Assembly (NCBI GenBank): GCA_964469555.1
Contig: CAYYAQ010000003.1
Location: 17,982 to 81,981, forward strand
Reading direction: 5' to 3'
Length of the DNA stretch: 64,000 nucleotides
From: an uncultured candidatus Brocadiaceae bacterium
GTDB taxonomy: Bacteria > Planctomycetota > UBA1135 > UBA2386
Under the pieces are notes generated by a model. It saw only the letters and a list, made by a program, of their open reading frames with translations. It was not told the DNA's origin and searched no databases. Of this stretch, positions 943-20,406 are shown in pieces. The position numbers were made by a program, and so were the translations under genes. Every line of letters begins with the position of its first letter. Positions within the stretch are counted from its first letter, which is position 1.

Positions 943-1908
943 ATGTTTCAGACGCTGGTCCTAGTGGCGGTTGCACTGCTGGGCGCGTGTGTCGGCTCGT
1001 TCCTGAACGTCGTCATCTACCGCGTGCCCGCGCGCACCTTCCTCTCCGGTGGAAAGCGGAGCCACTGCCCGAAGTGCGGCGTGCAGATCAAGTGGATCGA
1101 CAACATCCCGATCGTGAGTTGGCTGATCCTCCGCGGGAAGGGACGTTGCTGCGGCAATCCGATCAGCCCTCGGTACCCGTTCGTGGAGGCGTTGACCGCC
1201 GGGGTGCTTCTCTGGGTGTTCTACGTGACGGTGGGCCACCGGCTTCCACAGACACTCGAGCTGGGATGGATCTCGCCAGGTTGGGAACACTGGGGCAAGT
1301 TCGTGTTCCACGCGTGGTTCCTCTCGATCCTGATCGCGTGCACGTTCATCGACTTCGATCACCGGATCCTGCCCGACGTGCTCACGAAGCCGACAATGGT
1401 AGTCGGCGTTGTCGGGGCCGTGCTGGTGCCGGGATTCGTAGGGGAGGGGTTTGCGAAGCAGGGCGTGCCCGACGCGTTCGAACGCGTGGCCTACAGCGTC
1501 GTGGGTTTGGTCTGCGGACTGGCGCTGACCCAGGGCATCCGCGTGGGGGCCTCGAAGGTCTTCCGCCGCGAGGCGATGGGGTTGGGGGACGTCAAGTTCA
1601 TGGGGGCGATCGGCGTGTTCGTCGGCTGGGACGGGACGCTGTCGACCTTCTTCATCGGGAGCCTGCTCGGTGCGCTGTACGGCGGCCTGCACCAACTGAT
1701 CACGAAGGAAGGTCAGATCTTCTTCGGTCCGTTCCTGGCAGTGGGCGCCGTGATCACTCTCTTCTTCAAACGCGACATCGTCACGTTCGTCACCCAGACG
1801 TGGCCGAACTGGCAAGCAGCCAACGCGGGATCTCCCTGGGTCATGGGGGGCATCGCTCTGGTCGCCGCCGCGCTTCTTTTCTTCATCATTCGACGTGGAC
1901 GTAGATAG
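943..1908 (+). CDS. pilD: Prepilin peptidase / N-methyltransferase (peptidase A24)
   Basis: 321 aa from ATG 943. GSFLNVVIYRVP, Cys cluster CPKCG...GRCCGNPISPRYPFVE, several TM segments, and the two Asp motifs (FIDFDHRILPD, GLGDVKFMGAIG) typical of PilD/GspO. Confidence 0.9.
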   Translation: MFQTLVLVAVALLGACVGSFLNVVIYRVPARTFLSGGKRSHCPKCGVQIKWIDNIPIVSWLILRGKGRCCGNPISPRYPFVEALTAGVLLWVFYVTVGHRLPQTLELGWISPGWEHWGKFVFHAWFLSILIACTFIDFDHRILPDVLTKPTMVVGVVGAVLVPGFVGEGFAKQGVPDAFERVAYSVVGLVCGLALTQGIRVGASKVFRREAMGLGDVKFMGAIGVFVGWDGTLSTFFIGSLLGALYGGLHQLITKEGQIFFGPFLAVGAVITLFFKRDIVTFVTQTWPNWQAANAGSPWVMGGIALVAAALLFFIIRRGRR

Positions 1909-5098: not shown

Positions 5099-6199
5099 AT
5101 GGTTTCGATGGAAGAGTTGCTGACCATCATGGTCCAGCGAGGTGGGTCGGATCTTCATATCTCCGCGGGCTCTCCGCCAAAGATCCGCATCGACGGGAAG
5201 TTGTACGACACGGAGCACGACGTGCTCCGACCCGAGGTCACCAAGAAACTCATCTACTCGGTTCTCACCGCGGACCAGAACGCGAAGTTCGAGAAGATCA
5301 AGGAACTGGACTTCTCCTTCGGCGTCGCGAACCTCGGCAGGTTCCGGACGAACGCGTTCGTGCAGCGCGGCACGGTCGCGGCCGTGCTTCGCGTGATCCC
5401 GTTCGAAGTGCACGGCTTCGCCGAACTGGGACTGCCCGTCGATGTCTGCGAGTCGATTTGCGAGCTTCGCAAGGGGCTCGTGCTGTGCACTGGCTCCACC
5501 GGGTCCGGCAAGTCCACGACGCTCGCCTCGCTGGTCGACTGCATCAACGAGAAGCGCCAAGGCCACATTGTCACGATCGAAGATCCGATCGAGTTCCTGC
5601 ACAAGAACAAGAACTGTCTCGTCAACCAGCGCGAAGTCGGTGCGGATACCGCGGGCTTTTCCGGCGCGTTGCGGTCCGTGTTGCGGCAGGACCCCGACGT
5701 AGTGCTCGTCGGTGAGATGCGCGATCTCGAGACGATCGAGGCGGCGCTCACGCTCGCCGAGACGGGCCATCTCACGTTTGCAACCCTGCACACCTCGGAT
5801 ACTGCTCAGACGATCAACCGGATCGTCGACGTGTTCCCGTCGCACCAGCAGCAGCAGATCCGCACGATGCTCTCGTTCACACTGCAAGCCGTGCTGTGCC
5901 AACAACTCCTGCCGCTGAGTCAGGGGAAGGGCCGCGGTCTCGCGGCGGAAGTGATGCTCTCGACGCCGGCGATTCGCGCACTTGTCCGCGACAACAAGAC
6001 GCACCAGATCGCTTCCATCATCCAGACGAGTGGTAGCACGGGGATGCGCACGATGAACCAGTCGGTCTACGACCTCTACCGCGCCGGCTCGATCTCGTTC
6101 GACGATGCGCTGACGAACTGCACTGACCAGGCAGAGTTCCACAGACTCCTTCAACGGACAGGCGCGACCAGCGGGGCGGGAGCAGGCAGGCGTAGATGA
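5099..6199 (+). CDS. pilT: Type IV pilus retraction ATPase PilT
   Basis: GAGAGGAAG upstream of the ATG. SDLHISAGSPPKIRIDGKL, Walker A GSTGSGKSTT, IVTIEDPIEF, RSVLRQDPDVVLVGEMRD, TGHLTFATLHT and INRIVDVFP are classic PilT/PilU signatures. 366 aa. Confidence 0.92.
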   Translation: MVSMEELLTIMVQRGGSDLHISAGSPPKIRIDGKLYDTEHDVLRPEVTKKLIYSVLTADQNAKFEKIKELDFSFGVANLGRFRTNAFVQRGTVAAVLRVIPFEVHGFAELGLPVDVCESICELRKGLVLCTGSTGSGKSTTLASLVDCINEKRQGHIVTIEDPIEFLHKNKNCLVNQREVGADTAGFSGALRSVLRQDPDVVLVGEMRDLETIEAALTLAETGHLTFATLHTSDTAQTINRIVDVFPSHQQQQIRTMLSFTLQAVLCQQLLPLSQGKGRGLAAEVMLSTPAIRALVRDNKTHQIASIIQTSGSTGMRTMNQSVYDLYRAGSISFDDALTNCTDQAEFHRLLQRTGATSGAGAGRRR

Positions 6200-7905
6200 T
6201 CCAGTTCGCCAAGAAAGTCTGCCGCATTCTCGTCAAGGACGGGAAGCTCGACAAGGATCAGACCGCTTCGCTGCTCGAGCAGGCGCTGAAGTCCAAGCAG
6301 TCTCTCACCGAACTGCTCATCAAGAAGGACGTGCTCTCCGAGGGAGAGTTGCTCGCGAGCATGAGCAGGGCGGCGAACTTTCCTCCGATCGATCTCTCCA
6401 AGCTGAGTGTCAATCGCGAGATCCTGGATGGGATCACGGTCGAGGTCGCGATGGACTACCTCATCTACCCGATCGAGCGCATCGGCAACATCTTGACGAT
6501 CGCGATCGCGGATCCTTTCGACGTGCTGAAGCTCGACGACATTCGCATCATTACGCAGTGCCAGCTGAGGCCCGTGATCAGCACCGTCGAATCGATCACT
6601 CAAGCGATCGAGGCCGGCTACAAGTCCGAAGAGGCGTCGGTTGGGGACATCCTCGATTCGTTCGAGGACTCGGACGTTGAACTCGCCGAGGTCGAAGACG
6701 ACAGCGACGGCATGGACCTGACGGCCATCAACGACGAGGCATCGCCGGTCGTCAAGATGGTCAACAAGCTCATCGTCGACGCGGTTCAGGGAGGCGTGAG
6801 CGATATCCACATCGAGCCGTTCGAAAAGAGGGTGGTCGTCCGCTACCGCAAGGACGGTCGGATGATCGAGGTGATGCAACTGCCGAAGCGCATGCAGAAC
6901 AACATCTCCTCGCGCCTCAAGATCATGTCGAAGCTCGACATCGCCGAGAAGCACCGTCCGCAAGACGGCAAGTTCCAGATGAAGTTGGGCAACAAGGCGA
7001 TCGACTTCCGCGTCTCGATCCTCCCGGTCGTCTGGGGCGAGAAGACCGTGCTTCGTATTCTCGATTCGTCAAACCTCGCCGCCGATCTCACGACGCTCGG
7101 TTTCGAGGAGAAGTGCATGGAGGACTTTCTCTGGGCGTGTAGTGCGCCGTACGGGATGATCCTCGTCACAGGTCCGACGGGCTCCGGCAAGTCGACGACT
7201 CTCTACTCGGGTGTGCGCCACATCGCTAATCCGGAGATCAACCTCGTGACGGTTGAGGATCCGGTGGAGTACACCCTCGACGGCATCAACCAGGTGCCGG
7301 TGAATCCGAAGCGGGGGATGACGTTCGCGGGCGCTCTTCGGTCCATTCTGCGTCAGGACCCCGACGTCGTCCTTCTCGGCGAGATTCGCGACAAGGAGAC
7401 ACTCGAGATCGCGGTGAAGGCTGCCCTCACGGGACATCTCGTGCTGAGCACGCTTCACACGAACGACGCGCCGTCCACGATTACACGCATGGTCGACATG
7501 GGCATGGACCCCTTCATGGTCGCGAGCTCGACGCTCGTGATCTGTGCCCAACGACTGGGGCGCGTGTTGTGCACGCACTGCAAGAAAGAGACAGAACTCT
7601 CGAAGGAGGCACTCCTCGGAGTTGGTTTCACGGAAGAGCAGATGGCGGAAGAGGACTTCGGTGTGTACCAGCCCGTCGGATGCGGGCGTTGCACGAGCGG
7701 CTACAAGGGCCGGTTCGCCATCACGGAGACGATGCGCATGTCGGAGGGGATTCGCCGCATGGTGGTCGAGCGGGCACACATCCAAGACATCAAGAGTCTG
7801 GCCCTCAGCGAAGGGATGGTCACGCTCCGCAAGGCCGGGATGGCGAATGCGGGAAGAGGGAGGACGAGCGTCGAGGAAGTGATGCGCGTCACCATGGAAG
7901 ATTGA
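6196..7905 (+). CDS. pilB: Type IV pilus assembly (extension) ATPase PilB / GspE family
   Basis: ATGA overlap with the pilT stop. N-terminal T2SS-E N-domain-like region. Walker A GPTGSGKSTTLYS, VEDPVEY, LRQDPDVVLLGEIRD, TGHLVLSTLHTND. Tetracysteine motif CTHCKKE...CGRCTSGYKGR. Confidence 0.9.
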   Translation: MIQFAKKVCRILVKDGKLDKDQTASLLEQALKSKQSLTELLIKKDVLSEGELLASMSRAANFPPIDLSKLSVNREILDGITVEVAMDYLIYPIERIGNILTIAIADPFDVLKLDDIRIITQCQLRPVISTVESITQAIEAGYKSEEASVGDILDSFEDSDVELAEVEDDSDGMDLTAINDEASPVVKMVNKLIVDAVQGGVSDIHIEPFEKRVVVRYRKDGRMIEVMQLPKRMQNNISSRLKIMSKLDIAEKHRPQDGKFQMKLGNKAIDFRVSILPVVWGEKTVLRILDSSNLAADLTTLGFEEKCMEDFLWACSAPYGMILVTGPTGSGKSTTLYSGVRHIANPEINLVTVEDPVEYTLDGINQVPVNPKRGMTFAGALRSILRQDPDVVLLGEIRDKETLEIAVKAALTGHLVLSTLHTNDAPSTITRMVDMGMDPFMVASSTLVICAQRLGRVLCTHCKKETELSKEALLGVGFTEEQMAEEDFGVYQPVGCGRCTSGYKGRFAITETMRMSEGIRRMVVERAHIQDIKSLALSEGMVTLRKAGMANAGRGRTSVEEVMRVTMED

Positions 7906-7925
7906 GACGAAGGGGTAAGCACTAG

Positions 7926-9152
7926 ATGGCTACTACATTCAAGTACGCGGCGAAGGATGCATCGGGTCGGACGGTCACCGGCTCCATGAAGGCCGATTCT
8001 CAGAACGACGTTCTCACCGATCTTCGCCGCCGCCGGTTGACTCCAGTCGACATCGAGGAAACAGGTGGCGGACTGTTCTCCTCTGGAAAGAAGAAGGGCA
8101 GGTCCAAGTCGTCTTCGAGGAAGGGCGAGGTCGAGGTCTTCACGCGTCAGCTTTCGACGATGCTCAGCGCGGGTATCCCGATGCTCGAGGCCCTCGAGAT
8201 CCTGGCCGATCAGGCCGAGAGTCCCGGGTTTACGTATTGCCTTGAGTGCGTGGTCGAGGAGATTCGCGGTGGCGCTGACCTCTCGAAAGCCCTCGGTGGC
8301 CATCCGAGGGTCTTCAGCGACATCTACGTCAGCATGATCCGCGCCGGCGAGGTCTCTGGTCAAATCGATGTCATCCTGACGCGACTCGCCGAGTACCTCG
8401 AGGCGGCTGCTCACCTGCGGTCCGAGATCAAGTCGGCGATGACCTACCCGGTCGTTTCGTTGTTCCTGGTCATCGGTATCGCGAGCTTCCTGATGATCGG
8501 CATCGTGCCGAGTTTCAAGCCCGTGTTCCAGTCGCTCGAAGTCGAGCTTCCCGGCCTGACGTTGTTCACCATGGATATCGCGTTCTTCATGCGCGACAAC
8601 TGGTATCTGATCCTCGGTGGCATCATCGCACTGGTCGTTGTGCTTCGCGCGTATATCAAGACGGAGCATGGAAAGCTCGTCTACGACACGATCACGCTAC
8701 GCATCCCGGTCTTTGGACCGCTGTTCAAGAAGGTAGCCCTCTCACGGTTCGCCCGCACGTTCTCGACGCTCGTGAAGAGCGGTGTGCCGATTCTAGGCGC
8801 GATGGAGATCGTCTCGGAGACCGCGGGCAACAAGGTGATCTCCAGTGTCGTCGACGAAGCGCGTGAGAGCGTCAAGCAGGGCGACACGCTGATGGAGCCG
8901 TTCTCCAAATCGAAGGTCTTCCCGGCGATGGTGACGAAGATGATCGGTATTGGCGAACGGTCCGGTGCCCTCGACCAGCTGCTGGAGAAGATCGCCGAGT
9001 TCTACGACCAGCAAGTTGAGACGGAGGTCAAGGCACTCACGTCCCTGATCGAGCCGATCATGATCGCCGTGATGGGCTTCGTCGTGGGCGGCATCGTCCT
9101 GGCGGTCTTCCTGCCAATCTTCAAGCTGCAGGAGAAGCTATCCGGAGGATAG
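7926..9152 (+). CDS. pilC: Type IV pilus platform protein PilC / GspF family
   Basis: 408 aa with two GspF-type repeats (FTRQLSTMLSAGIPMLEAL... and FARTFSTLVKSGVPILGAM...), interspersed TM segments, and EPIMIAVMGFVVGGIVLAVFLPIF at the C-terminus. Confidence 0.9.
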   Translation: MATTFKYAAKDASGRTVTGSMKADSQNDVLTDLRRRRLTPVDIEETGGGLFSSGKKKGRSKSSSRKGEVEVFTRQLSTMLSAGIPMLEALEILADQAESPGFTYCLECVVEEIRGGADLSKALGGHPRVFSDIYVSMIRAGEVSGQIDVILTRLAEYLEAAAHLRSEIKSAMTYPVVSLFLVIGIASFLMIGIVPSFKPVFQSLEVELPGLTLFTMDIAFFMRDNWYLILGGIIALVVVLRAYIKTEHGKLVYDTITLRIPVFGPLFKKVALSRFARTFSTLVKSGVPILGAMEIVSETAGNKVISSVVDEARESVKQGDTLMEPFSKSKVFPAMVTKMIGIGERSGALDQLLEKIAEFYDQQVETEVKALTSLIEPIMIAVMGFVVGGIVLAVFLPIFKLQEKLSGG

Positions 9153-9255: not shown

Positions 9256-10134
9256 ATGAACGACACTGGCAAACGAATCGGTGGTTACGGAGCGGCCGCG
9301 ATCGTGGTCGCAGGATTGATCTACGTGAGCTTCATCCGCGAGACGGACGCGGATCCCATGACCCTCCTCGGCTCCGCGAACGTCCAGATCAGCCTGGCTG
9401 CCGCGTTCCCGGAATTGGACAGGGAAGGCAAGCCGAACGAGGCGCGGATCAAGATCCTGAGAGATGCGAGTGAGTTCGTCGCGAGGGCGCGCAAGCAGAA
9501 TCCGAACCTGCACGCAGGCATTGAGCTCGAGGCGCACCTGTCGTACATGAACGGCGACTACAAGACGGCCGCTGGCCTGTTCAAGGAGGCGCAGGGGAGC
9601 AAGGAATCCACGCCGGAGAGCAGTGTCATCGACAGGCTCAACGAGGCCGGGATGTGGCGTGCGGCGGAGAAACCGGAGAAGGCGTTGGCGGTCCTGGATC
9701 AGCTCTCGGAGTTCCTGGTGACGCACGCGACGATGTCGCAGAATCAACGGGCGCACTTGTTGGTCGAGCTTGACCGCGCCGACGAAGCGGTGGATATCGC
9801 GACACGTCTCGCCTACTCGTGCACGGATCCCGTCGTCCTGGTAAACGTCGGGTTGCTGCTCGAGTCTCAAAATGAGATGGAGATCGCCGAGGCAGCGTTC
9901 AGTGCCGCTGCGGAGAGGGCGCCGTGGGCGAACTACTACTTGGCGAAGCTCAAGATCTACGAAGAGGAGTTCGATACGGGATTGGATCTATTGAAGCGAG
10001 CGGTTGCTGCCGATGGTCGCCGGATTCGAGCCATGCTCAAGCGTGATTCGACGACCTGGAAGTCCATTGAAGGGGACGCGCGTTTCAAGGATCTATTCAC
10101 CTCTGCGAGTAAACCGGCCAATCCTGGTCGCTGA
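9256..10134 (+). CDS. Membrane-anchored TPR-like protein (pilus accessory role is only positional inference)
   Basis: AAGGAG upstream of ATG 9256. One N-terminal TM (GGYGAAAIVVAGLIYVSF), then helical-repeat sequence with TPR-like pairs (YMNGDYKTAAGLFKEA, AEKPEKALAVLDQL, ANYYLAKLKIYEEEFDTGLDLLKRAV). Lies between pilC and the pilin gene. Confidence 0.5.
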   Translation: MNDTGKRIGGYGAAAIVVAGLIYVSFIRETDADPMTLLGSANVQISLAAAFPELDREGKPNEARIKILRDASEFVARARKQNPNLHAGIELEAHLSYMNGDYKTAAGLFKEAQGSKESTPESSVIDRLNEAGMWRAAEKPEKALAVLDQLSEFLVTHATMSQNQRAHLLVELDRADEAVDIATRLAYSCTDPVVLVNVGLLLESQNEMEIAEAAFSAAAERAPWANYYLAKLKIYEEEFDTGLDLLKRAVAADGRRIRAMLKRDSTTWKSIEGDARFKDLFTSASKPANPGR

Positions 10135-10214
10135 GTTGTTTGGGGAGTGGGGCGTGTGTCCCACGACACGCGGAGCGTGTGCTCCGTCACATGGCTGTTT
10201 AGGAAAAATTCATA

Positions 10215-10928
10215 ATGAACAATCGGCAAAAGGGCTTCACGCTCATCGAGCTGATGATCGTTGTCGCGATCATCGCTATCATCGCATCCATCGCTATTCC
10301 GAACCTGTTGAGCGCGCGCTTGAACGCCAACGAGTCGGCCGCGATCGCCACGCTGAAGAACATCTCTTCCGCACAGGCCCAGTGCCAGGCTTCCGGCGCT
10401 ATCGATACCAACAACAACGGCGCTGGTGAATACGGCTACTTCGGCGAGCTCGCCGGTGGCGTTGGCGTCCGCGACAGTGCTGGCTCCGCCAGCACCGACC
10501 ACTTGGCTCCCCCGGTCCTCTCCGGTGCGTTCGCGAACGTCGCCACGCAGTCCGGCATCACCGGTGGCGCCGTCACGCGTTCCGGCTACATCTTCCAGGT
10601 TTACCTCCCGGCCAGTGACATGCTCGGACTGAACGAACAGACCACCGGTGGCGTTGGCTCGACCGCTCCGGACGCCGCGCAGGCTGAGGTTCTCTGGTGC
10701 TGCTACGCTTGGCCGAGCTCATTTGGTAACAGCGGCAAGCGCACCTTCTTCATCAACCAGTCCGGTGACGTTCTGAGCACCAAGAACCTCGCGCAGCGCT
10801 ACAACGGCGCCGCGAAGGTTCCCGGTTGCACCGCCGCATTCCTGAAGGGCGCTGGCAACGAGATGGGTTCGACCGTCGCCGCCAACACCTCGGGCAATGA
10901 CGACCAGGTCTGGGTCGTCGTCAACTAA
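10215..10928 (+). CDS. pilA: Type IV (major) pilin-like protein with class III signal peptide
   Basis: AGGAAAA upstream of the ATG. MNNRQKG|FTLIELMIVVAIIAIIASIAIPNLL, i.e. Gly at -1, Phe at +1, Glu at +5 and a hydrophobic alpha1-N helix. 237 aa with four Cys, including a vicinal pair (WCCYAW). Followed by a strong hairpin. Confidence 0.85.
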   Translation: MNNRQKGFTLIELMIVVAIIAIIASIAIPNLLSARLNANESAAIATLKNISSAQAQCQASGAIDTNNNGAGEYGYFGELAGGVGVRDSAGSASTDHLAPPVLSGAFANVATQSGITGGAVTRSGYIFQVYLPASDMLGLNEQTTGGVGSTAPDAAQAEVLWCCYAWPSSFGNSGKRTFFINQSGDVLSTKNLAQRYNGAAKVPGCTAAFLKGAGNEMGSTVAANTSGNDDQVWVVVN

Positions 10929-10947
10929 GACCGCGATTCAATTCATG

Positions 10948-10988
10948 AAGAGGGTCTTGGACGAAAGTCCGGGACCCTCTTTGCTTGT
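10948..10988 (+). terminator. Strong hairpin / probable intrinsic terminator after the pilin gene
   Basis: AAGAGGGTCTTGGAC-GAAA-GTCCGGGACCCTCTT: a 15-bp stem (two G-U pairs) with a GNRA tetraloop, starting 20 nt after the stop and followed by TGCTTGT. The U-tract is weak. Confidence 0.5.
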
Positions 10989-11159
10989 ACCCGTGAAGAG
11001 GGGTTCCGGCCCTCCTTGCCAGTATCCCGGGGCCCCCGCGGTTGACCCGCCCGGTGCGGCCCGAACCCTGGTGGCAAGGCGGTTATCCGGCGCGGTGTGG
11101 GAGGATCGTACAGCCTATTCCTCAACCCTTTTGGTGATCGTGCCGATAGCCCCGATGGC

Positions 11160-12146
11160 ATGAGCATTTCTAATCCAGTCCGCGGGTACGACCTGCCCGG
11201 GTTGATGACGGGGGAGGTACCGGAGAAACGAGACCGGCGTCAGGTCCCGATCACGCGCCGCACCATCAAAAGCCTCAGCCTGGTCATCCCCGCGAAGAAC
11301 GAAGCCGCTGGCCTCCCCGGTCTTCTCGAAGAGTTGAACGGGGTGCTCGCCCAGCGCGAAGGCCTGCGCTACGAGATCCTGCTCATCGACGACGGTTCGA
11401 CGGACGAGACAGCGGAGATCGGTCTGGCTGCCGGAGCTCGGGTGATCACTCATCCCGAATCCCTGGGCAACGGCGCAGCGGTCAAACGCGGGATTCGTGA
11501 GGCGCAAATGGACTGGGTGGTGCTGTTGGATGGCGATGGCCAGCACCCGCCCGACCAGTTGCCCGAGCTGATCCGGCTGGCTGAGAGCCGCTACGACATG
11601 GTCGTGGGGTCGCGTGGCGGCAGCGGCGGCTCCGTGCACCGCAATCTCGCGAACCGCATCTACAACGGTCTCGCGAGCTACGTGACCAATCGACCCATCC
11701 CTGATCTCACGAGCGGGTACCGGTTGATTCGCGCCGACGTGGTCAAGGGATTCTGCTACCTGCTACCCAATACGTTCAGCTATCCGACGACGATCACGCT
11801 CGCCATGATGAGAGCGGGTTACTCCGTAGGTTTCGCTCCCATCGAGGTGCGAGAGCGGCAGGGGAAGAGTCACATCCGCGTCATTCGCGACGGCACTCGC
11901 TTTCTGATCATCATCCTCCGCATCGCGACGTTCTTCGCGCCGCTGCGCGTGTTCATGCCGCTGTCTGCCGTGATGTTCGCGATGGGTTTGATCTGGTACG
12001 CGATCACCTACTTTACCGGTGGCCGGTTCACGAACATGGGCGTTCTGCTGTTCACGCAGGCATCCGTCATCTTCGGACTCGGCCTCGTCTCCGAGCAGGT
12101 CGCAGCGCTCCGCTTCCAACGATCCGACGGAGACTTCCGGTCGTGA
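11160..12146 (+). CDS. GT2 glycosyltransferase, polyprenyl-phosphate sugar synthase type (DPM1/ArnC/GtrB-like)
   Basis: LSLVIPAKNEA...ILLIDDGSTDET...LLDGDGQHPP (GT-A DxD region), plus C-terminal TM helices (FLIIILRIATFFAPL..., VLLFTQASVIFGLGLVSEQ) as in polyprenol-P glycosyltransferases. Start uncertain: ATG 11160 chosen; GTG 11097 and ATG 11205 are possible. Confidence 0.75.
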   Translation: MSISNPVRGYDLPGLMTGEVPEKRDRRQVPITRRTIKSLSLVIPAKNEAAGLPGLLEELNGVLAQREGLRYEILLIDDGSTDETAEIGLAAGARVITHPESLGNGAAVKRGIREAQMDWVVLLDGDGQHPPDQLPELIRLAESRYDMVVGSRGGSGGSVHRNLANRIYNGLASYVTNRPIPDLTSGYRLIRADVVKGFCYLLPNTFSYPTTITLAMMRAGYSVGFAPIEVRERQGKSHIRVIRDGTRFLIIILRIATFFAPLRVFMPLSAVMFAMGLIWYAITYFTGGRFTNMGVLLFTQASVIFGLGLVSEQVAALRFQRSDGDFRS

Positions 12147-13321
12147 GCGAATTGCGGGTCCTCGCTTTCGGGGCCTGGGATACCGGCGCCGGCTACCCGC
12201 GCGCCGACGCCCTGCTTCTCGGTCTGCGAAGCAGCGGCTGCCTCGTGGACGAGTGTCGGTTCGAGTTGCCGTTCGCTGGAACAGAGAAGCGTCGTCTGTT
12301 GACTTCGCCCTGGTTGTGGCCCGGCTACTGGTGGTCGCTCCGGAAGGCGAAGCAGCAGGCGATCCGGGCCCTCACCGCGGCCGTCGAAGCACATCGTCCC
12401 GACGTGGTCCTCGTGCCGTATCCCGGGCATCTCGTCGTCCGATGGGTGCGCGAGGCGTTTGGGGGACCGATCGTGTTGGATCTCTTCCTGTCCGCGTACG
12501 ACACGGTGGTCATCGATCGTCAGATGTGCAAGCCGGGATCTCCGCTGGCCCGGTTCATGCGGCGCACGGACCAGCGTGCGTGCGAGGCTGCCGACTGCGT
12601 GCTCGTCGACACTCCCGCAAACGCCGTCTTCACCTCGGAACTGGTCGGGCTGCCGCCTGAGCGATTCGTCGCTATCCCCGTGTCGGATCCGATGGAGGCG
12701 GGGGAAGGGCTTCCGTATCGTCCCCCCGAAGTCGACGGGACGATCGAGCTCTTGTTCTTCGGCACCGGTGTGCCGTTGCACGGACTCAGCCACCTCCTCG
12801 ACGCCGTCGAACAGTGTGATCGGGTCCACCTCACGCTCATCTGCGGCGCGGCTGCTGACCGCGTGCGGGCGCAAGCGATACCTTCGAGTCGAGTGCGCGT
12901 CGTCGGCGAGTTCGTGGATCCTGAGGTCTTGCGGGATTACCTCGCCCGGTCGCACCTGGTCGCGGGTGTCTTCGGAACCTCGCAAAAGGCAGACCGCGTG
13001 ATCCCGTTCAAGGTCATGCAAGCACTTTCGGTGGGTCGACCGGTCATCACCGCGCGAACGCGCGCCACGAGCTCCGTGCTTCGTGAAGGCATCGACGCCG
13101 TGCTCGTCCCGCCCGGAAATGCGACCGCCTTGGCGGCGGTCCTTTCGAGTCTGGCCGAACAACCCGAGCGATTGGTGGAGCTGGCCGCGGGGGCGCGCAC
13201 CGTCTACGAGCGCCGGTTCTCGCTCGACGTCACCGGCGGGGCTCTGCGCGGTGCATGCCGCGCGTGCGTCGATCGTTCCTCCTCCCGCGCGGAGACCGTG
13301 GAACTCGTGGAGATGACGTGA
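12143..13321 (+). CDS. GT-B fold glycosyltransferase (GT4-like)
   Basis: GTG start overlaps the upstream stop (GTGA). The C-terminal half resembles the GT4 nucleotide-sugar-binding domain (GVFGTSQKADRVIPFKVMQALSVGRPVITARTRATSSVLREGIDAVLVPPGN). The usual EX7E Glu is Gln here. Confidence 0.65.
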   Translation: MSELRVLAFGAWDTGAGYPRADALLLGLRSSGCLVDECRFELPFAGTEKRRLLTSPWLWPGYWWSLRKAKQQAIRALTAAVEAHRPDVVLVPYPGHLVVRWVREAFGGPIVLDLFLSAYDTVVIDRQMCKPGSPLARFMRRTDQRACEAADCVLVDTPANAVFTSELVGLPPERFVAIPVSDPMEAGEGLPYRPPEVDGTIELLFFGTGVPLHGLSHLLDAVEQCDRVHLTLICGAAADRVRAQAIPSSRVRVVGEFVDPEVLRDYLARSHLVAGVFGTSQKADRVIPFKVMQALSVGRPVITARTRATSSVLREGIDAVLVPPGNATALAAVLSSLAEQPERLVELAAGARTVYERRFSLDVTGGALRGACRACVDRSSSRAETVELVEMT

Positions 13322-15153
13322 GCGACGATCGGAAGCGCGATCACCGCGGGATGTGGGTCATCGCCGTGGCCACTTTGCTCGCGTACTTCCTCTGCCTCGG
13401 CGGAGACTTCGTCTACGACGACGTGCACTCGGTTCGTGACAACAAGGCCGTGAGCTCTCTCGCGAACGTGCCTGGTTTCTTCGTGGACGTGTCCACCTTC
13501 AGCTCCGTCGACTGCCGGCTGTACCGGCCCGTGCTCTTGACGAGCTTCGCCATCGATGGGTTCATCGGCGACATGCGTCCATGGGCGTTCAAGCTCTCGA
13601 ATCTGCTACTGCATCTCGTGGCCGCGTTCCTCTTGTTCGGGATTGCCCGCCGGGTCGGCGCGCGTCGCAACGGCGCGGTGCTCGCGGCGTGTCTCTTCGG
13701 CGCGCACCCGATGGTGTCCGAGGCGGTGAACACGATCTCCGGTCGCAGCAACTTGATGATGGTCGTCGCGCTGCTCGGTGCGGTGCGTTGTCATCTCTCC
13801 GCGATGGAAGGACGGCGATACGCCGTCCTCGGCACGACGCTTCTCGGCCTCGTCGCGATGGGCTGCAAGGAGCCGGGGATGATCCTGCCAGTCTTGCTCG
13901 TCATTCTGGAGGCACTCCGCGTCTCCGATGGTCCGCGGGACTACCGCGCCGCCGCGTTGCGGGTCTTGCCGACCGTGGTGGTGGTCGTCCTCTATCTATG
14001 TGTTCGCTCACACTTCCTCGGCGTGGCGTCGCTCGGGGTCGGGGCGTGGGCAGGCACGGACGTCAGTAGTGGGCACGGGCGGGGACTCGCGACCCAACTC
14101 GCGACGATGGCCGTCTTGTTGCCACAGTCGTTGCTCAAAGTCGTCGCCCCGCACGGCATGACGATGGATCCAGTCATCGCCTTCACGAACGAATGGAGCT
14201 CGCCGGTGGTCCTCGGCGGCGTGTTGTTCCTCGCGGTGCTCACGGCGGCGGGGCTCTGGGCGCCGCGCCGACGTCCCGGGGTCTTTCTCGGCACCTGCCT
14301 CGCATGGGGCACGGCGGCGCCCTGGGTCCTGAAGCCACTGAACCTGCCCTTCCTGGAGCACCGTTTCTACGGAACCCTCGCTGGCCTGGCGTTGGTCGCG
14401 GCCGTGGCCTTGCGGGGCGCAGAGTCTCATCTCGCGCGGATGTCGTGGCGCGGCGCGTTCGCGATCCCCGTGCTGCTGTTCGTGATCATCTCGGGAGCGC
14501 GATCGCTGGAGTTCACGAGCGAAGAGAAGCTCTGGACCCTGGAGCTGTCCCGCAATCCGGACTCACGGGTCGCGATGGCGGGCATCGCGGTGGTTCGCAT
14601 GCAGCAGCATCGCTACGCCGAGGCGCGGCCCTATCTCGAGCAACTCGTGCAGGCCTACCCTCTGCGCCGCGACGCGAGGATGAATCTCGTGGAGGTCATG
14701 TTGCACACCGGCGATCCGGAGGCATCGGTCCCGCACACGCAGTTTCTCATCGAGACGTGGGAGCGAAATGCGTTCTACTGGTTGCTGCGGAGCCGCGTCC
14801 TGGCCGCGGTCGGCGTCTTGCGTCACGAGGATTCGTACTTCGACGCCGCGGTCGACGCCGCCCTGCACTGTCTGAAGATCAAGGAGCCGAAGGGTCTCGT
14901 GTATCGGACGGCTGCGAGCGCGCGTCGGTTGCAAGGCGATCTCGATGCGGCGATCGCCCTGCTGGACAGGAGTGTCGACCGCGGGCTCCATCACTCCTCG
15001 GTGTTGCTTGACCGAAGCGCGCTGTTGATCCGTCGCGGGAGGATCCGGGAGGCTCGGGCCGATCTCCACCGCGCGCGTGGCAACGAACCGTTCAATCCGC
15101 GGGTACTCCGCGCGTTGGAGGAACTCGACGGACGCGGTGCGACGCCGCGTTAG
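13318..15153 (+). CDS. Polytopic GT-C-type glycosyltransferase fused to C-terminal TPR repeats (TMTC/PMT_2-like)
   Basis: GTG 13318 overlaps the upstream stop (GTGA); ATG 13351 is the alternative. About 10 TM segments. First-loop motif GGDFVYDDVHSVRDN (DD at 13417-13422), as I recall for TMTC/PMT-type GT-C enzymes. The C-terminal ~190 aa are TPR-like. Confidence 0.6.
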   Translation: MSDDRKRDHRGMWVIAVATLLAYFLCLGGDFVYDDVHSVRDNKAVSSLANVPGFFVDVSTFSSVDCRLYRPVLLTSFAIDGFIGDMRPWAFKLSNLLLHLVAAFLLFGIARRVGARRNGAVLAACLFGAHPMVSEAVNTISGRSNLMMVVALLGAVRCHLSAMEGRRYAVLGTTLLGLVAMGCKEPGMILPVLLVILEALRVSDGPRDYRAAALRVLPTVVVVVLYLCVRSHFLGVASLGVGAWAGTDVSSGHGRGLATQLATMAVLLPQSLLKVVAPHGMTMDPVIAFTNEWSSPVVLGGVLFLAVLTAAGLWAPRRRPGVFLGTCLAWGTAAPWVLKPLNLPFLEHRFYGTLAGLALVAAVALRGAESHLARMSWRGAFAIPVLLFVIISGARSLEFTSEEKLWTLELSRNPDSRVAMAGIAVVRMQQHRYAEARPYLEQLVQAYPLRRDARMNLVEVMLHTGDPEASVPHTQFLIETWERNAFYWLLRSRVLAAVGVLRHEDSYFDAAVDAALHCLKIKEPKGLVYRTAASARRLQGDLDAAIALLDRSVDRGLHHSSVLLDRSALLIRRGRIREARADLHRARGNEPFNPRVLRALEELDGRGATPR

Positions 15154-15944: not shown

Positions 15945-16994
15945 CTACTTATCGGCGAAGTCGAACTGCTTCTTGTAGTCGTTGAGCTTCGCTCGGATCC
16001 CCGCGTCGACTTCCTTCATGTCGACCTCCTTCAGGAACGGCACGGCATCCTGACCGAGGGCTTCGACGACGGCTACCATGCACTTGCGACGGAAGAGGGG
16101 ATTGGGCACCTGGCCTGGAACGGGCGCTTGCTGCCAGAACAGCTCCTTGATGCGGTTGGCGGACATGACGGACTTCATCCTGCCCAGCGCTTCAACGCAC
16201 CGTTGCACCGTGATCGTCTCGTAGTACTCGGTTCTTGTCAGCATCCGCAGGAGGGTCCTCTCCACCTCGGGATGACCCGTCGCCACGTAGTCGTCGATGT
16301 AGTTGAACAGTTGCTTGGGGTGTAGCCCCGGAGTCTGGCTTCCGGCACGCTGACTCGGGTTGGTGTGTTTTTCGGCGAGCAGCTCGTGCAGGATCTCGCC
16401 GGCGATCTTCTTGTCGGCCAGCAGCAACTCGCTCGCGGCGAAGCGGCGCAGTCGAAGACTGACCGCGAACTCCTTGCCACGCAGCACGCGGGCGAGGAGG
16501 TCCTTGCCCTTTGGAGGATCGGCGGACAGCGCGGCGATGAGGAGCCACTTGCGCAACTCGTCGTTGGTCGTCGCGTCCCCTCCGACACTCTGCTCGGCGA
16601 GGAACGCGCTCTCGATCTGCGCGGAGGCGTCCGGGAGGAAGGACATGGTCTCGACGATGTCCTTCATGCGTTCGTCGACGAAGAACCGATCGTCCGAACC
16701 CGGCTTGCTCTTTTCCAACCACGGGGCCCAGTACTGCAGGTGCTCGAGCAAGAGCAGGAAGCCGGCGCCTTCGTACTTGGCCGTCGCGAAGTAACCCCAC
16801 TCCCTCACGGAGTGTTGCAGGGCTCGCAATCGACCGTCGAGTTCATCGCGGGTCGCGTGGGCGTCGTGGACGAGGTACCCGGTGCCCGCGAGGTTCGCGA
16901 TCAGGAGGGCCACCAGCAGGCCGGGGACCAGTCGCGCGGGATTGGGAGCGTTGGAAGTCGGGTTGGTTGTCATCTCGGCGCCTTTTATGCCCAT
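15945..16994 (-). CDS. Hypothetical signal-anchored helical-repeat (HEAT-like) protein
   Basis: N-terminal hydrophobic anchor LVPGLLVALLIANLAGTGYLV, then alpha-helical repeat-like sequence. No motif I can name. Start could be ATG 16973 (MTTNPTS). Coding call rests on length, GC3 pattern and the absence of a better frame. Confidence 0.5.
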   Translation of the reverse strand: MGIKGAEMTTNPTSNAPNPARLVPGLLVALLIANLAGTGYLVHDAHATRDELDGRLRALQHSVREWGYFATAKYEGAGFLLLLEHLQYWAPWLEKSKPGSDDRFFVDERMKDIVETMSFLPDASAQIESAFLAEQSVGGDATTNDELRKWLLIAALSADPPKGKDLLARVLRGKEFAVSLRLRRFAASELLLADKKIAGEILHELLAEKHTNPSQRAGSQTPGLHPKQLFNYIDDYVATGHPEVERTLLRMLTRTEYYETITVQRCVEALGRMKSVMSANRIKELFWQQAPVPGQVPNPLFRRKCMVAVVEALGQDAVPFLKEVDMKEVDAGIRAKLNDYKKQFDFADK

Positions 16995-17370: not shown

Positions 17371-20300
17371 ATGCTGATTCGCCCGCTCACCATTCTCCTC
17401 GCCCTGAGCCTAACTCTCTTCTTCCCAGCGTGTTCTAGTAGTGGAACAAAGCCGGGGGAGACCGGGGTTTGTGGTTCGCAGCCCGGCAAGAACCTGTTTT
17501 GCCTGACGTCCTGCAACCTGGGTTGCTCCCTGGCCGGGTGCAACATCAACAAGATCAGTCAGAACGAACCGATCGAGTTGATCTTCAACCAGGACGTCGA
17601 CAAGTTCAGCGTGCCGCCGTACTCGACGAGCATCCTGCTGCGCACCGCGACGGGTGAAGAGCCCGTGGGCGATTGGCTCGTCAACGGGAACCGCGTGACC
17701 TTCTCTCCCGGCGTGTTGATCTCCGGCGCGAAGACGTTCTTCGGCTTCCGTCCGAACGAGACCTACCACCTCTACATGCCCGCGAGTATCGACCAGCCCG
17801 ACGTGATCCAGTCGATGGGTGGCGATCGACTCTCGACGCCGATCACGTGCACGCTCAACATCGGCAAGATCAAGGACCTCAACCAGGCGCGGCCAGCGGC
17901 GGAACTCATCGTCCCTCTGAAGCTCGCGAAGGGAGTGGACCTCGACACGGTGATCAAGATCGAGTTCAACGAAATCATCGATCCGGCGATCTTCGTGGGG
18001 ATCACGCCCGAGACGAGCCCTATCCGCTACGTCGTGAAGGCTGCCACTCTCGACGCCGAGAAGAATGTCATCTGTCGATCGTCGTCCGAAGCCATTCTGC
18101 TTCCCGGTGAACCGCGCATGACGATCGATCCGGTCCGCAGGATCAGCACCGTGACCTTCAAGCCGAAGGAGAACTTGCCCGGCAAGAAGTGCGTCGAAAT
18201 CCTGGTGACTTCCCAGGTCAAGGACCTCGCGGGAGTCCTCGCCCTCCCACACCTGATGTTCTTCACGACGAGGGACGTGGGCGTCCAGTCGTTCAATAAC
18301 ACGGAGGACTTCACCAGCAGCAAGTTCCTCGACAAGGAGCTTTCCGCCGGGACGTGGGGCAACGGCAAGCTCACGTTCAGCCCGATCGGGGGCTCAGGCA
18401 AGCACGGTGTGTTCGACCCGGCGCTCGGCAAGGACATCAGCGATCCGAAGATCAAGGTCGCGGTCTACGAGTGGGACCTGGACAAGCCTGGTGGCATCAA
18501 GATCCCGAAGATCTATACGACCACGGGCAAGGACGAGTTCGTCACCGACGGACGGTTCGAGTTCTCCAAGATGGAGATCCCCGACGGCGTCGAAGTCCAC
18601 TTCATCGGCTCCCAACCCGCCCGCATCTGGGTGCGGGGCGCGGTTCGCATCGGCGGGCTGCTCGCCTCGAATGGCGAGTCCTTGCCGACAATCGGTCGCC
18701 CGGGATCCGTACTCAGGTTGAAAGCGAAGTCAGCGCTGACCGGTGAGAAGGGTGGTCGCGCTGGCGCGATGGGCGGTTCCGGCGGTGACGGAGGCGACAT
18801 GGGCGGTATGGCCGTCATCACGGCAGGCAACTTCGGCATCGGCACTGAGTACGAAATCGACGCCGTCGGAACCACGGACTTCACGAAGATCGGTGCGGCG
18901 AGCAACACCCTTGGCCTCGTCTTCAAGGCGACCGGTCGCGGCGTGGGGTCGGGCCGGGCGCGTTCCGGTCCGATTGTGCAGGCCGACGGATTCGTCACCG
19001 GATCCCATTACCGGATCCTGACCTTGGGAACGACCGACTTCAGGTTGATCGGTGCTGCGAACAACACGCTCGGCGAGGAGTTCACGGCGACAGGCCGCGG
19101 CGCTGGAACTGGCACCGCACGCCACCTGGACTTCGACGGCAAGCCGGGTCAGGACGTTAACTTCTACAACGAATCCTCGACCGTGCGCCACTTCTACGAT
19201 GGCCAGTACAAGGGCTCGGGCGGGCGCGCCTCGCCGATGTGGCCGCCGTTGGGCTTCAACAACGCGATCAGCTACTCGTACTACTCCGTCATCGCGCAGC
19301 ACGCCAACCGGGGCGGGAGCGGTGGTGGCTTCACGTCGGCTGGCGGCGACGGATACACCCGCTGGATTGGCGCAAACTCTGTGAACGCCAAGTATCTCGC
19401 TCCCGGGAAGACTCCCGGCGGCAAGGGCGCCGCGTTCGCCTCGACGTTCCCCAACTACACGAACGGCTACACGCATCAGGACCACTTCGTGGCCGGTGGC
19501 GCCGGTGGCGGTGGTGGTGGGTCGTCGGCCGGCGGCGCGATCTTGAGCATTGTCGTCGACCGGTGGAAAGCCGGGCGCGCCGGCGGTGGCGGTGGTGGAG
19601 CCATGGCTCTGCGTATCGGCGGCGAGCTTGTGCTGCTGGCCTCTGGTCGACTTCAGGCCCTCGGCGGCGACGGAGCCTTCGACAACAGCAACTTCGCCAT
19701 CCGCGGTCTGATGACCCCGGGCGGCGGTGGCTCCGGTGGAGCATTGTTCCTGCAGGTCAATCAGGCCACCCGCAACGTGGGCTCGATCAGCGTCAAGGGC
19801 GGTATAGGCGGGAGGACCTTCGGCGGCCCTGGCGATCAGGTCTACGCCGGCATGGAGGCCTACGGTGGCGATGGCTCGAATGGCTTGCTCCACTTCGAGA
19901 CGACGCAGAGTCCCAATAGCTATTCGGTGGGCATCACGGTGCCGGCCAAGCCTCCGGTTTCCCTGCTCGATCCGGACGACAAGGACCTTGTGGTCACGAT
20001 TCGCTCCCTCTGGTACGCCGCGAGTCTGCTGTTCCCGCCGGAATTCAAGCGCTACACGATCGAGGCGATCGTCGACAACCAGCGTCGGGTCTACTCCGAC
20101 GACAAGGAGGTCGGCAACCCGGCTGCCCCGCAGTACGACAAGGACTACGCGGGCCTGGCCAACAACGGCTCCCCGATCGTATTCGCTGTCCAGGGCGCGA
20201 AACTCGAACTCGACCCCGCGGGCCAGCTGGCTCCGAAGGCGAACACCGCCATCAAGCCGTTCCGCAAGTACGTCGGGGACCACTCGACGACCGAACCGAC

Positions 20301-20406
20301 CCTCTTCGACGATGGTGCCACCGGCTACCGATTCGAACTCACTCTCGACCGCAGCCTCGGCAAGACGGTCGAGGTCAAGAAGGTCGTTGTCTACTGGGAT
20401 CTGTAG
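17371..20406 (+). CDS. Large glycine-rich lipoprotein, paralog A (putative surface protein, family unknown)
   Basis: 1011 aa. Signal plus lipobox LFFPAC. Cys motif FCLTSCNLGCSLAGC (17500-17541). Two regions with bacterial Ig-like (SbsA/Big_5-type) sequence pattern. Poly-Gly runs alternating with short hydrophobic strands (GGAGGGGGGSSAGGAILSIVV, GRAGGGGGGAMALRIGG, TPGGGGSGGALFLQV). Conserved C-terminal patch shared with paralog B. Confidence 0.8.
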   Translation: MLIRPLTILLALSLTLFFPACSSSGTKPGETGVCGSQPGKNLFCLTSCNLGCSLAGCNINKISQNEPIELIFNQDVDKFSVPPYSTSILLRTATGEEPVGDWLVNGNRVTFSPGVLISGAKTFFGFRPNETYHLYMPASIDQPDVIQSMGGDRLSTPITCTLNIGKIKDLNQARPAAELIVPLKLAKGVDLDTVIKIEFNEIIDPAIFVGITPETSPIRYVVKAATLDAEKNVICRSSSEAILLPGEPRMTIDPVRRISTVTFKPKENLPGKKCVEILVTSQVKDLAGVLALPHLMFFTTRDVGVQSFNNTEDFTSSKFLDKELSAGTWGNGKLTFSPIGGSGKHGVFDPALGKDISDPKIKVAVYEWDLDKPGGIKIPKIYTTTGKDEFVTDGRFEFSKMEIPDGVEVHFIGSQPARIWVRGAVRIGGLLASNGESLPTIGRPGSVLRLKAKSALTGEKGGRAGAMGGSGGDGGDMGGMAVITAGNFGIGTEYEIDAVGTTDFTKIGAASNTLGLVFKATGRGVGSGRARSGPIVQADGFVTGSHYRILTLGTTDFRLIGAANNTLGEEFTATGRGAGTGTARHLDFDGKPGQDVNFYNESSTVRHFYDGQYKGSGGRASPMWPPLGFNNAISYSYYSVIAQHANRGGSGGGFTSAGGDGYTRWIGANSVNAKYLAPGKTPGGKGAAFASTFPNYTNGYTHQDHFVAGGAGGGGGGSSAGGAILSIVVDRWKAGRAGGGGGGAMALRIGGELVLLASGRLQALGGDGAFDNSNFAIRGLMTPGGGGSGGALFLQVNQATRNVGSISVKGGIGGRTFGGPGDQVYAGMEAYGGDGSNGLLHFETTQSPNSYSVGITVPAKPPVSLLDPDDKDLVVTIRSLWYAASLLFPPEFKRYTIEAIVDNQRRVYSDDKEVGNPAAPQYDKDYAGLANNGSPIVFAVQGAKLELDPAGQLAPKANTAIKPFRKYVGDHSTTEPTLFDDGATGYRFELTLDRSLGKTVEVKKVVVYWDL
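18841..19122 (+). repeat. Intragenic tandem duplication (two 41-aa units, 53-aa period) inside paralog A
   Basis: GTEYEIDAVGTTDFTKIGAASNTLGLVFKATGRGVGSGRAR (18841-18963) versus GSHYRILTLGTTDFRLIGAANNTLGEEFTATGRGAGTGTAR (19000-19122): 26/41 identical by hand alignment. I found no counterpart in paralog B. Confidence 0.8.

Follow-up and report, generated by a model that had tools for sequence, protein, structure and literature searches.

What do three glycosyltransferase genes do when they stand directly behind the major pilin gene of a type IV pilus cluster, and which molecule would receive their sugar? The question is raised by a 64,000-nt stretch of contig CAYYAQ010000003.1 (assembly GCA_964469555.1, positions 17,982 to 81,981 of the forward strand; hereafter the window) from an uncultured candidatus Brocadiaceae bacterium of the phylum Planctomycetota. 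Three consecutive open reading frames (ORFs) on its + strand span positions 11160-15153 and encode a family 2 glycosyltransferase (GT2), a GT4-like enzyme and a predicted membrane glycosyltransferase of the GT-C fold with C-terminal tetratricopeptide repeats (TPR). We refer to them as genes 1, 2 and 3, and to the set as the trio. The general chemistry that these genes suggest, a polyprenyl-phosphate sugar synthase followed by transfer through an outward-facing GT-C enzyme, very likely applies. With moderate confidence, based on homology and analogy, we further propose that the trio is a lipid-carrier-dependent extracytoplasmic glycosylation system of a type IV pilus cluster, similar to the pilin glycosyltransferase TfpW and related to the TMTC enzymes, with the adjacent major pilin as its putative main acceptor.

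A lipid-linked sugar synthase and a divergent GT-B enzyme

Gene 1 (11160..12146, + strand) encodes a GT2 with two C-terminal membrane helices. Its start is ambiguous between ATG 11160 and GTG 11097, and the first ~36 residues are unconserved. The product matches the Pfam model Glycos_transf_2 (PF00535) with an E-value of 1.5e-31 and the structure of ArnC (9hwj) with 3e-19, the latter over residues 35-314 of 328 and with the C-terminal helices included; further structure matches are the archaeal dolichol-phosphate-mannose synthase DPMS (5mlz) and GtrB (5ekp). Among the curated NCBIfam families the best match is AglJ (3.8e-29), and ArnC, the haloarchaeal dolichyl-phosphate hexose transferase, PgfS (7.6e-18) and PpgS are matched as well, while no equivalog cutoff is reached in NCBIfam (AglJ, 102 versus 325 bits; ArnC, 81 versus 529 bits). 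Across 54 orthologues, the DDG and DGDGQHP motifs keep their core residues without exception. A first-pass annotation, made from the sequence alone, had described gene 1 as a GT-A enzyme with C-terminal transmembrane (TM) helices and hence with the architecture of polyprenyl-phosphate sugar synthases, and these matches bear it out. By homology, gene 1 belongs to the GtrB/ArnC/DPM1/AglJ type of polyprenyl-phosphate sugar synthases; the scores define the class and reach no single equivalog that would name the sugar.

Gene 2 (12143..13321, + strand) was given as GT4-like in the same annotation, a label that stands, even though the protein is divergent. Both halves of a GT-B enzyme are recognised by Pfam, the N-terminal one by Glyco_trans_4_4 (6.8e-9) and the C-terminal one by Glyco_trans_1_4 (3.8e-13), and there is a weak match to the GT4 enzyme HepE (4xso, 4e-5). 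The E-x7-E region is replaced by a K..VIPFK..GRPVIT stretch, which is conserved across 55 orthologues. Gene 2 is thus conserved and atypical, and its product is presumably functional.

The junctions of the trio are tight. Both GTGA overlaps of the first-pass annotation are present on the same strand: at 12143-12146 the TGA stop of gene 1 overlaps the GTG start of gene 2, and at 13318-13321 the TGA stop of gene 2 overlaps the GTG start of gene 3. Overlaps of four bases are the commonest type in bacterial operons, and those found here point to co-transcription and perhaps to translational coupling, and to nothing out of the ordinary. At the matching junctions of orthologous loci the genes either overlap, by 1, 4 or 8 nt, or are separated by 11-78 nt; close packing of the trio is typical and conserved, and the exact overlap length is not universal. 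The GC content at third codon positions (GC3) of the trio genes is 0.79-0.84, the same as that of their neighbours, so the genes are native. The idea of a horizontal acquisition was dropped for the same reason.

Gene 3 joins a predicted GT-C membrane domain to a TPR domain

Read from the GTG at 13318, gene 3 encodes a 611-residue product that is identical to an NCBI protein (P0001). Residues 1-400 (13318..14517, + strand) form the predicted GT-C domain. The helix map of the AlphaFold2 (AF2) model and the distribution of Lys and Arg residues, read by the positive-inside rule, indicate 11 TM helices with the N-terminus inside, which places the first loop and the TM7-TM8 loop outside. The acidic motif GGDFVYDDVHSV, residues 28-39 (13399-13434), lies in this first periplasmic loop and contains D34-D35 (codons 13417..13422, + strand), a pair that is retained without change in alignments of 37 and of 43 homologues. 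Residues 401-611 (14518..15153, + strand) form a TPR domain (TPR_19, 1.1e-12; TPR_16, 1.8e-9), with Pfam TPR families covering residues ~400-611; since it follows the 11th TM helix, this domain is also predicted to lie outside the cytoplasm. The architecture of the first-pass annotation, a polytopic protein with an acidic motif in its first loop and a C-terminal TPR array, is recovered in full, and its expectation that the DD motif would face the periplasm agrees with the topology.

The fold of the membrane domain could not be read from the full-length protein, as the TPR domain swamped both the fold and the profile searches. Even though the full-length AF2 model was confident, with a mean predicted local distance difference test (pLDDT) score of 91.6, its top structure matches were all TPR proteins. 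We modelled residues 1-400 separately to escape this dominance, which gave a pLDDT of 92.3 and a predicted TM-score (pTM) of 0.92. In a Foldseek search of the PDB with this model, the top 38 matches were all GT-C enzymes (E-values 1e-5 to 3e-2, query-based TM-scores (TMq) 0.5-0.59), including AglB, STT3, Pmt4, ArnT, PglB, EmbC, ALG3, DPY19, AftA and PIG-M, and ArnT (5f15) was among the best, at a root-mean-square deviation (rmsd) of 7.0. Beyond them the list contained unrelated transporters, with probabilities <0.2. The GT-C homology postulated for the N-terminal domain is thereby upheld at the level of fold. We assign gene 3 as a GT-C enzyme on the predicted fold and on homology through its relatives, not on a direct Pfam match: the N-terminal 400 residues alone gave zero Pfam matches at E<=0.01.

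Particular residues of the membrane domain are conserved as well. Across aligned sequences as distant as ~21% identity, no change is seen at D34, D35, R70, P71, P131, K184 and P278, and almost none at H130 and E185. Within the 61 residues of the TM7-TM8 loop are a helix and the motif P278-x2-M-x-x-D, which takes the form P-x2-[LM]-x-x-[DE] in the family. This loop aligns with the DUF1736 segment of the bacterial homologues P0038 and P0087, which exceed the TMTC_DUF1736 gathering score of 27 with 29.8 and 42.6 bits, respectively. The motifs FxYDD, HPxxxE, (S/T)KE and E[HR]xxY align between gene 3 and these DUF1736 homologues too. PMT_2 is passed or approached by 7 of 43 members of the gene 3 family, and PMT is matched in 4 of the 43. 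Because TMTC_DUF1736 (PF08409) has no match in gene 3 itself, we call the protein TMTC-like rather than a member of the TMTC family; its motifs and its homology through relatives would place it on a TMTC-related branch of the GT-C enzymes.

Searches with the membrane domain revealed a superfamily of 32,475 clusters at 50% identity (E<=1e-3), which narrows to 6,460 at E<=1e-10, while the own clade of gene 3 comprises only 58 clusters at E<=1e-30. The named homologues are mostly called 'tetratricopeptide repeat protein' or 'protein O-mannosyl-transferase', and some relatives are labelled 'PilF' or 'TadD' in their sources, owing to the TPR domain. Wzy_C had no match in any of the three genes.

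The trio is conserved behind the pilin gene

We surveyed the neighbourhood of the close gene 3 family in a scan of one genome per species, in which flanking genes were counted only where enough DNA was available. The scan yielded 57 distinct orthologous loci with GT-C identities of 34-56%, nearly all titled as planctomycete metagenome-assembled genomes and a few only as uncultured bacteria, together with 24 distant GT-C/TPR loci from other phyla. A GT4 gene lies immediately upstream of the GT-C gene in 54/54 orthologous loci, and a GT2 gene upstream of the GT4 in 51/51. This strict co-occurrence with a GtrB/ArnC-type synthase supports a putative use of a polyprenyl-phosphate-linked donor by gene 3.

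The link to the pilus is nearly as firm. In 43 of the 44 informative loci a pilin gene lies upstream, at a distance of <=5.5 kb from the GT-C gene, and in 35 of the 44 it is directly adjacent. PilB and PilC are both present in 38 of 39 loci, and the membrane-anchored TPR protein that we call TPRx in 37 of 39. In four loci (L010, L028, L043 and L051) the extra DNA between pilin and GT2 is a second pilin paralogue; where pilins stand in tandem, the trio remains behind the last of them. The genes on the other side are less constant, with a TatD gene adjacent downstream in 24 of 32 loci and a HEAT/lipoprotein pair adjacent in 20 of 39, the pair otherwise lying 8-11 kb away or being absent from the flank. 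The first-pass annotation had named association with lipopolysaccharide (LPS) or exopolysaccharide (EPS) genes as the competing pattern, and the survey decides for pilins: LPS/EPS genes were found neither in or near the cluster in the window nor beside the trio in the 57 loci.

The pilin and a conserved hairpin behind it

The proposed acceptor is a type IV major pilin of 237 residues (10215..10928, + strand), recognised by N_methyl (4.2e-11), DUF2950 (1.7e-5) and its GFTLIE motif. Ser and Thr make up 15.7% of its residues and Gly 11.7%. N-glycosylation at a nearly conserved C-terminal A-x-N-x-[ST] stretch was considered and dropped, as the sequon is unconserved in orthologues and gene 3 is without a periplasmic domain of the oligosaccharyltransferase (OST) type.

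The spacer of 231 nt between the pilin gene and gene 1 contains a strong GC-rich hairpin (10947..10982, + strand), with a 16-bp stem and a GAAA loop, 19 nt past the pilin stop codon. Direct folding of 10926-11060 gave -63.2 kcal/mol (z = -3.6). A hairpin of equal strength follows the pilin in 47/47 loci (the window and 46 from L001-L078), in which the structure is kept and the sequences are unrelated; its energies range from -24 to -47 kcal/mol in 46 nt, compared with -15 to -30 for shuffled sequences. A consensus terminator scan 3' of the pilin flagged nothing, and the hairpin has no T-run. It is most simply taken as a terminator, an attenuator or an mRNA 3' stabiliser, and would permit a large excess of pilin over the enzymes. 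The description of the trio as directly behind the pilin gene holds in the sense of adjacency and does not hold in the sense of one transcript at equal dosage: the enzymes are probably made at another level than the pilin.

Pilin neighbourhoods found independently of glycosyltransferases

We also analysed 80 loci from a metagenome scan seeded with the pilin. The scan used a generic N-terminal motif, so that most of its hits are unrelated pilins and ~6 are orthologues; its loci thus survey the surroundings of pilins without regard to glycosyltransferases. Two of the loci are informative for the trio.

One of them, L086 (Ga0194131_10001868, 5575-14165), comes from a sister lineage and carries PilT-PilB-PilC and an orthologous full-length pilin (53% identity), as well as a HEAT-like gene, a 1228-residue lipoprotein and an amidohydrolase. 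The TPR protein, GT2, GT4, GT-C and TatD are all absent at this locus. As both flanks are present without the trio, the trio is an accessory insertion or deletion between pilin and lipoproteins. TPRx (9256-10134), which is missing together with the glycosyltransferases, co-varies with the trio and may belong to it.

The other, L127 (MRWG01000091.1, 4596-11537), is a low-GC, proteobacteria-like contig outside the planctomycetes with a classical PF00114 PilA. Downstream of pilA it encodes a 642-residue, GT-C/TPR-like homologue of gene 3 (full-length BLASTP match, 23% identity, 2e-11). Next comes a GT2 gene that shares 4 nt with the one before it; its product has 44% identity to gene 1 (9e-88) and matches AglJ (1.4e-33), and the last gene of the set encodes a canonical GT4. 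As judged by homology, the same three families recur beside a pilin in another phylum, in a different order. Upstream of pilA lies a TMEM260-like GT-C (PF11028, 1.6e-30), so that two different GT-C enzymes surround this one pilin gene.

Four further loci with pilins of beta-proteobacterial type (L117, L119, L138 and L141; GC 0.64-0.68) show pilA followed, within ~100 nt, by a ~380-residue GT2 with C-terminal helices. Further on they encode very large polytopic proteins, a second GT2 of ~364 residues whose hydrophobic C-terminal half resembles a GtrA-type fusion, and a DUF2723-like protein that contains an EDD motif. Clusters for lipid-sugar glycosylation next to pilin genes may be common.

Surroundings of the trio in the window

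The gene order in the window is prepilin peptidase, OmpA-like protein, EF-G, PilT, PilB, PilC, TPRx, pilin, GT2, GT4 and GT-C/TPR, followed by TatD and the HEAT-like gene (both on the - strand), two Big_5 lipoproteins and an amidohydrolase. The prepilin peptidase, of the PilD type (peptidase A24; 943..1908, + strand; A24_N_bact 4.5e-32, Peptidase_A24 1.7e-19), and the OmpA-like protein occupy 943-2595, both upstream of the gene for the translation factor EF-G, which interrupts the pilus cluster; its place directly before PilT is kept across the clade. The PilT-like retraction ATPase (5099..6199, + strand; T2SSE 8.8e-43) has a conserved position in orthologous loci. It is followed on the same strand by the PilB-like assembly ATPase (6196..7905; T2SSE 5e-134 and MshEN 6e-15), the platform protein PilC (7926..9152; T2SSF 2.7e-68) and TPRx (9256..10134), which has weak TPR, PilW and GltE matches.

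Behind the trio, the HEAT-like gene (15945..16994, - strand), which is not part of it, is recognised through HEAT_2 matches in orthologues. The two lipoproteins (17371..20406, 1011 residues, and 20466..23150, 894 residues; both + strand) contain Ig-like Big_5 domains (1.9e-9 and 1.7e-14), in agreement with the Ig-like domains noted earlier at 17-23 kb. They are paralogues that share extended Gly-rich stretches and, C-terminally, the conserved segment YSDD.EVGNPAA.QYDKDYAG. These lipoproteins always accompany the divergently transcribed HEAT-like gene, near pilus genes even in the lineage without the trio, and they may be pilus-associated. Some 18 kb downstream of the trio, 33003-34664 encodes a 553-residue protein with a DegT/DnrJ/EryC1 aminotransferase domain (9.5e-20); aminotransferases of this class often make amino sugars.

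A proposed pathway and its alternatives

In the pathway that we propose, gene 1, by its homology, would transfer a sugar from a nucleotide donor to polyprenyl phosphate at the cytoplasmic face of the membrane. Gene 2, still in the cytoplasm, would extend the lipid-linked sugar to a disaccharide or supply another glycan step, and this is the weakest part of the scheme. In haloarchaea, soluble glycosyltransferases act after AglJ in this way, extending the lipid-linked sugar. The donor would then be flipped, either by a flippase encoded elsewhere or by the GT-C enzyme itself, as has been suggested for TfpW (bioRxiv 10.1101/2020.04.19.049825). In the periplasm, gene 3, with D34-D35 in its first outer loop, would move the sugar to Ser/Thr residues of the pilin, the acceptor suggested by synteny and by TfpW, and its TPR domain would recruit the acceptor protein. 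The conserved hairpin would keep pilin expression far above that of the enzymes. We favour the pilin as acceptor because of the synteny, the independent recurrence at L127 and the TfpW precedent; the presence of the same pilin and a lipoprotein without the trio in L086 is what one would expect if the trio is an accessory system for modification.

Several results weigh against this proposal. The family matches anticipated by the first-pass annotation were obtained for Glycos_transf_2 and for the GT4-like models, while for gene 3 DUF1736 was missing and the only Pfam GT-C model to respond was PMT_2, at 17.5 bits, below its cutoff of 26.1; an HMMER comparison of the N-terminal profile of gene 3 with the sequences of the PDB gave nothing at E<=10. 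Gene 2 reads D/K...Q at the canonical Glu positions and is thus a GT4 without the E-x7-E residues, and a GT4 is in any case not accounted for by a simple three-component model. No flippase gene (GtrA, SMR or MATE) was found at 9-24 kb or among 20 other window proteins scanned. The hairpin separates the pilin from the trio in all 47 loci, so co-transcription is not required. One orthologous trio, L026 (CANEYR010000095.1, 1-13323, on an 18.7-kb contig), is the only one without preceding pilus genes; a second copy or a rearrangement may explain it, and its upstream neighbour is a 968-residue ORF. The distant homologues in other phyla do not stand beside pilins, except in genomes of the PVC group, which are rich in pilin-like genes. 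Finally, the conserved order could partly be phylogenetic inertia, as the unrelated EF-G gene is kept upstream too and the orthologues all belong to one planctomycete clade.

As an alternative, the trio might be a general periplasmic O-glycosylation system for many surface or secreted proteins, comparable to actinobacterial PMT or Neisseria PglL, with the pilin and the lipoproteins as only some of its clients. Such a system would fit a TPR domain as a generic protein-binding module, the trio of L026 away from pilus genes, a probable ancestral layout with the trio between pilin and lipoproteins, and the size of the superfamily, which is mostly not pilin-linked. We nonetheless regard it as fairly unlikely, because the pilin-linked clade is small and distinct within that superfamily, the trio stays fixed to the pilin while its other neighbours vary, and L127 is again pilin-adjacent. 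The trio might also act on a non-protein acceptor (LPS/O-antigen, exopolysaccharide, peptidoglycan or lipid A), in the manner of GtrABX or ArnC/ArnT, its position at the pilus genes being accidental. Here the ArnC and GtrB matches of gene 1, the high rank of ArnT among the fold matches of gene 3, the likewise conserved EF-G and the terminator-like hairpin between pilin and trio can be cited in favour. Against it stand the 57 loci without LPS/EPS genes beside the trio, a C-terminal TPR domain and TMTC/PMT-type motifs that indicate protein acceptors, and a pilA adjacency that, occurring in both L127 and TfpW, is hard to call an accident; taken together, they make a non-protein acceptor quite improbable.

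The first-pass annotation had also considered, by analogy with the O-mannosylation of Ig-like cadherin domains by the TMTC enzymes, that the Ig-like domains of the two Big_5 lipoproteins could be acceptors. The domains are confirmed, the TMTC_DUF1736 signature is present in homologues of gene 3, and the lipoproteins stand next to the trio here and in roughly half of the loci. In the other half they are displaced or gone from the flank while the trio stays by the pilin. L086 keeps a lipoprotein by its pilin without a trio, and L127 has trio and pilin without such a lipoprotein. Synteny thus gives the analogy no support (20/39 adjacent, against a nearby pilin in 43/44), TfpW is the closer precedent, and we consider lipoproteins very improbable as the dedicated acceptors. 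That gene 3 is instead a non-catalytic scaffold or assembly protein of the pilus, its TPR domain acting like PilF or PilW while the glycosyltransferases serve an unrelated pathway, would be in line with the failure of gene 3 to reach any Pfam GT-C threshold and with the 'PilF' and 'TadD' names of some relatives. This is scarcely credible in view of the confidently predicted GT-C fold, the invariance of D34, D35, R70, P71, P131 and K184 (and near invariance of H130 and E185) down to ~21% identity and the coupling to a lipid-sugar synthase in every one of the 51 loci.

A stronger version of the proposed pilin glycosylation is that the trio constitutes a distinct route of protein O-glycosylation, in which a short glycan is built on polyprenyl monophosphate by an AglJ-like step and a GT-B extension and is passed to the pilin by a TMTC-related GT-C enzyme. 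We consider this distinctly unlikely. If it were true, the pilin-linked clades of Planctomycetota and of proteobacteria-like contigs such as L127 would provide the first TMTC-like enzymes of bacteria whose natural substrate can be identified. They would also make a tractable model for the TMTC family, since none of the solved structures matched here belongs to it.

Glycosylation of pilins alters pilus stability, adhesion, phage susceptibility and antigenicity. Our results suggest that a TfpW-style GT-C/TPR enzyme behind pilA occurs in Planctomycetota too, which would be a new lineage and a new layout rather than a new principle; specific to this locus are the TMTC-related branch of the GT-C enzyme and the lipid-sugar synthase built into the operon. 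The bacterial GT-C/TPR superfamily, with more than 32,000 clusters at 50% identity, is almost entirely uncharacterised, and a clade with a candidate substrate encoded next door makes function directly testable. Such a clade may also shed light on substrate choice by the metazoan TMTC O-mannosyltransferases through their TPR domains.

Comparison with known systems

Pilins are known to be glycosylated by PglL/TfpO, which uses glycans linked to undecaprenyl pyrophosphate (Und-PP), and by TfpW, which uses polyprenyl-phosphate-arabinofuranose. The trio shares with PglL/TfpO (PilO) the position of a pilin-modifying enzyme gene directly downstream of the pilin gene. The enzymes themselves are unrelated: PglL/TfpO are Wzy_C enzymes that act on Und-PP-linked O-antigen units, whereas gene 3 has a predicted GT-C fold and no Wzy_C domain.

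Several systems pair a lipid-sugar synthase with a GT-C enzyme. In three-component systems, a GT2 charges polyprenyl phosphate and a GT-C enzyme uses the donor outside the cytoplasm (PMC11127046). GtrA/GtrB/Gtr*, ArnC/ArnEF/ArnT, CsbB/YfhO and the pentofuranose systems resemble the trio in combining a membrane-anchored GT2 with a GT-C enzyme (PMC11127046), but the cluster in the window contains no flippase gene and an extra cytoplasmic GT-B, and its GT-C enzyme carries TPR and has a pilin gene as its partner, where the others are tied to O-antigen, lipid A or teichoic acid loci. Closer in their acceptors are the actinobacterial Ppm1/Pmt pair and streptococcal Pgf (PgfS/PgfM1/PgfE/PgfM2), in which a polyprenyl-phosphate sugar synthase and a GT-C enzyme act on secreted or surface proteins. 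Gene 1 matches PgfS, and members of the gene 3 family match Pfam PMT and PMT_2, whereas gene 3 lacks MIR domains and similarity at the level of GT39 (its profile finds no Pmt in the PDB); the systems also differ in GT-C subfamily and in accessory genes. The haloarchaeal AglJ pathway resembles the trio in that AglJ is the best NCBIfam match of the GT2 both here and in L127, and a GT2, a soluble glycosyltransferase and a GT-C enzyme would fit a short oligosaccharide on a monophosphate carrier. The AglJ score, however, is far below the cutoff, and AglB, an N-oligosaccharyltransferase, contains a WWDYG domain that is absent here.

The four metazoan TMTC proteins (TMTC1-4) have 11 TM helices with the N-terminus inside, TPR outside and a DD motif in loop 1 (PMC7801869). 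TMTC1-4 (GT105) and the bacterial DUF1736 proteins share with gene 3 the combination of a GT-C domain and C-terminal TPR, and the topology of gene 3 matches this model, as do its FxYDD motif in loop 1, its HPxxxE motif in TM3 and the small helix outside the membrane in its long TM7-TM8 loop (PMC7801869). Gene 3 differs in the missing direct match to DUF1736 and in its pilus operon context; the dolichyl-phosphate-mannose donor and the extracellular cadherin (EC) domains as acceptors are those of the TMTC enzymes.

By architecture and position, taken from its published description, TfpW is the closest known system. This pilin D-arabinofuranosyl transferase of P. aeruginosa group IV (Pa5196/PA7) is a GT-C protein of 646 residues and 11 TM helices whose loop 1 carries an essential DDX motif and whose TPR domain is periplasmic; ArnT is its best structural template (bioRxiv 10.1101/2020.04.19.049825). 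Pilin arabinosylation requires its gene, which is located immediately downstream of pilA (bioRxiv 10.1101/2020.04.19.049825). Gene 3 matches this description in size (611 versus 646 residues), in the 11-TM GT-C domain, the DD of loop 1, the periplasmic TPR and the structural neighbour ArnT, and each of the two genes is found downstream of that for the major pilin. The likeness does not extend to names or models, as neither gene 3 nor the L127 protein had an NCBIfam match of the TfpW type and no homologue is named TfpW; a tblastn of plasmids in the TfpW search gave no match.

The two systems also differ in layout and donor supply. Two glycosyltransferase genes stand between the pilin and the GT-C gene here, whereas tfpW follows pilA directly, and the YX6PFX7P motif of TfpW is, by eye, absent at the corresponding PF site of gene 3. 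There is no TfpX homologue here, and the phylum differs. In Pseudomonas the donor path, in which polyprenyl-phosphate-arabinofuranose is derived from phosphoribosyl pyrophosphate (PRPP) by DprE1/E2-type enzymes, is encoded elsewhere, while the operon in the window holds its own GtrB/AglJ-type GT2 and a GT4, implying a hexose-type donor derived from a nucleotide sugar.

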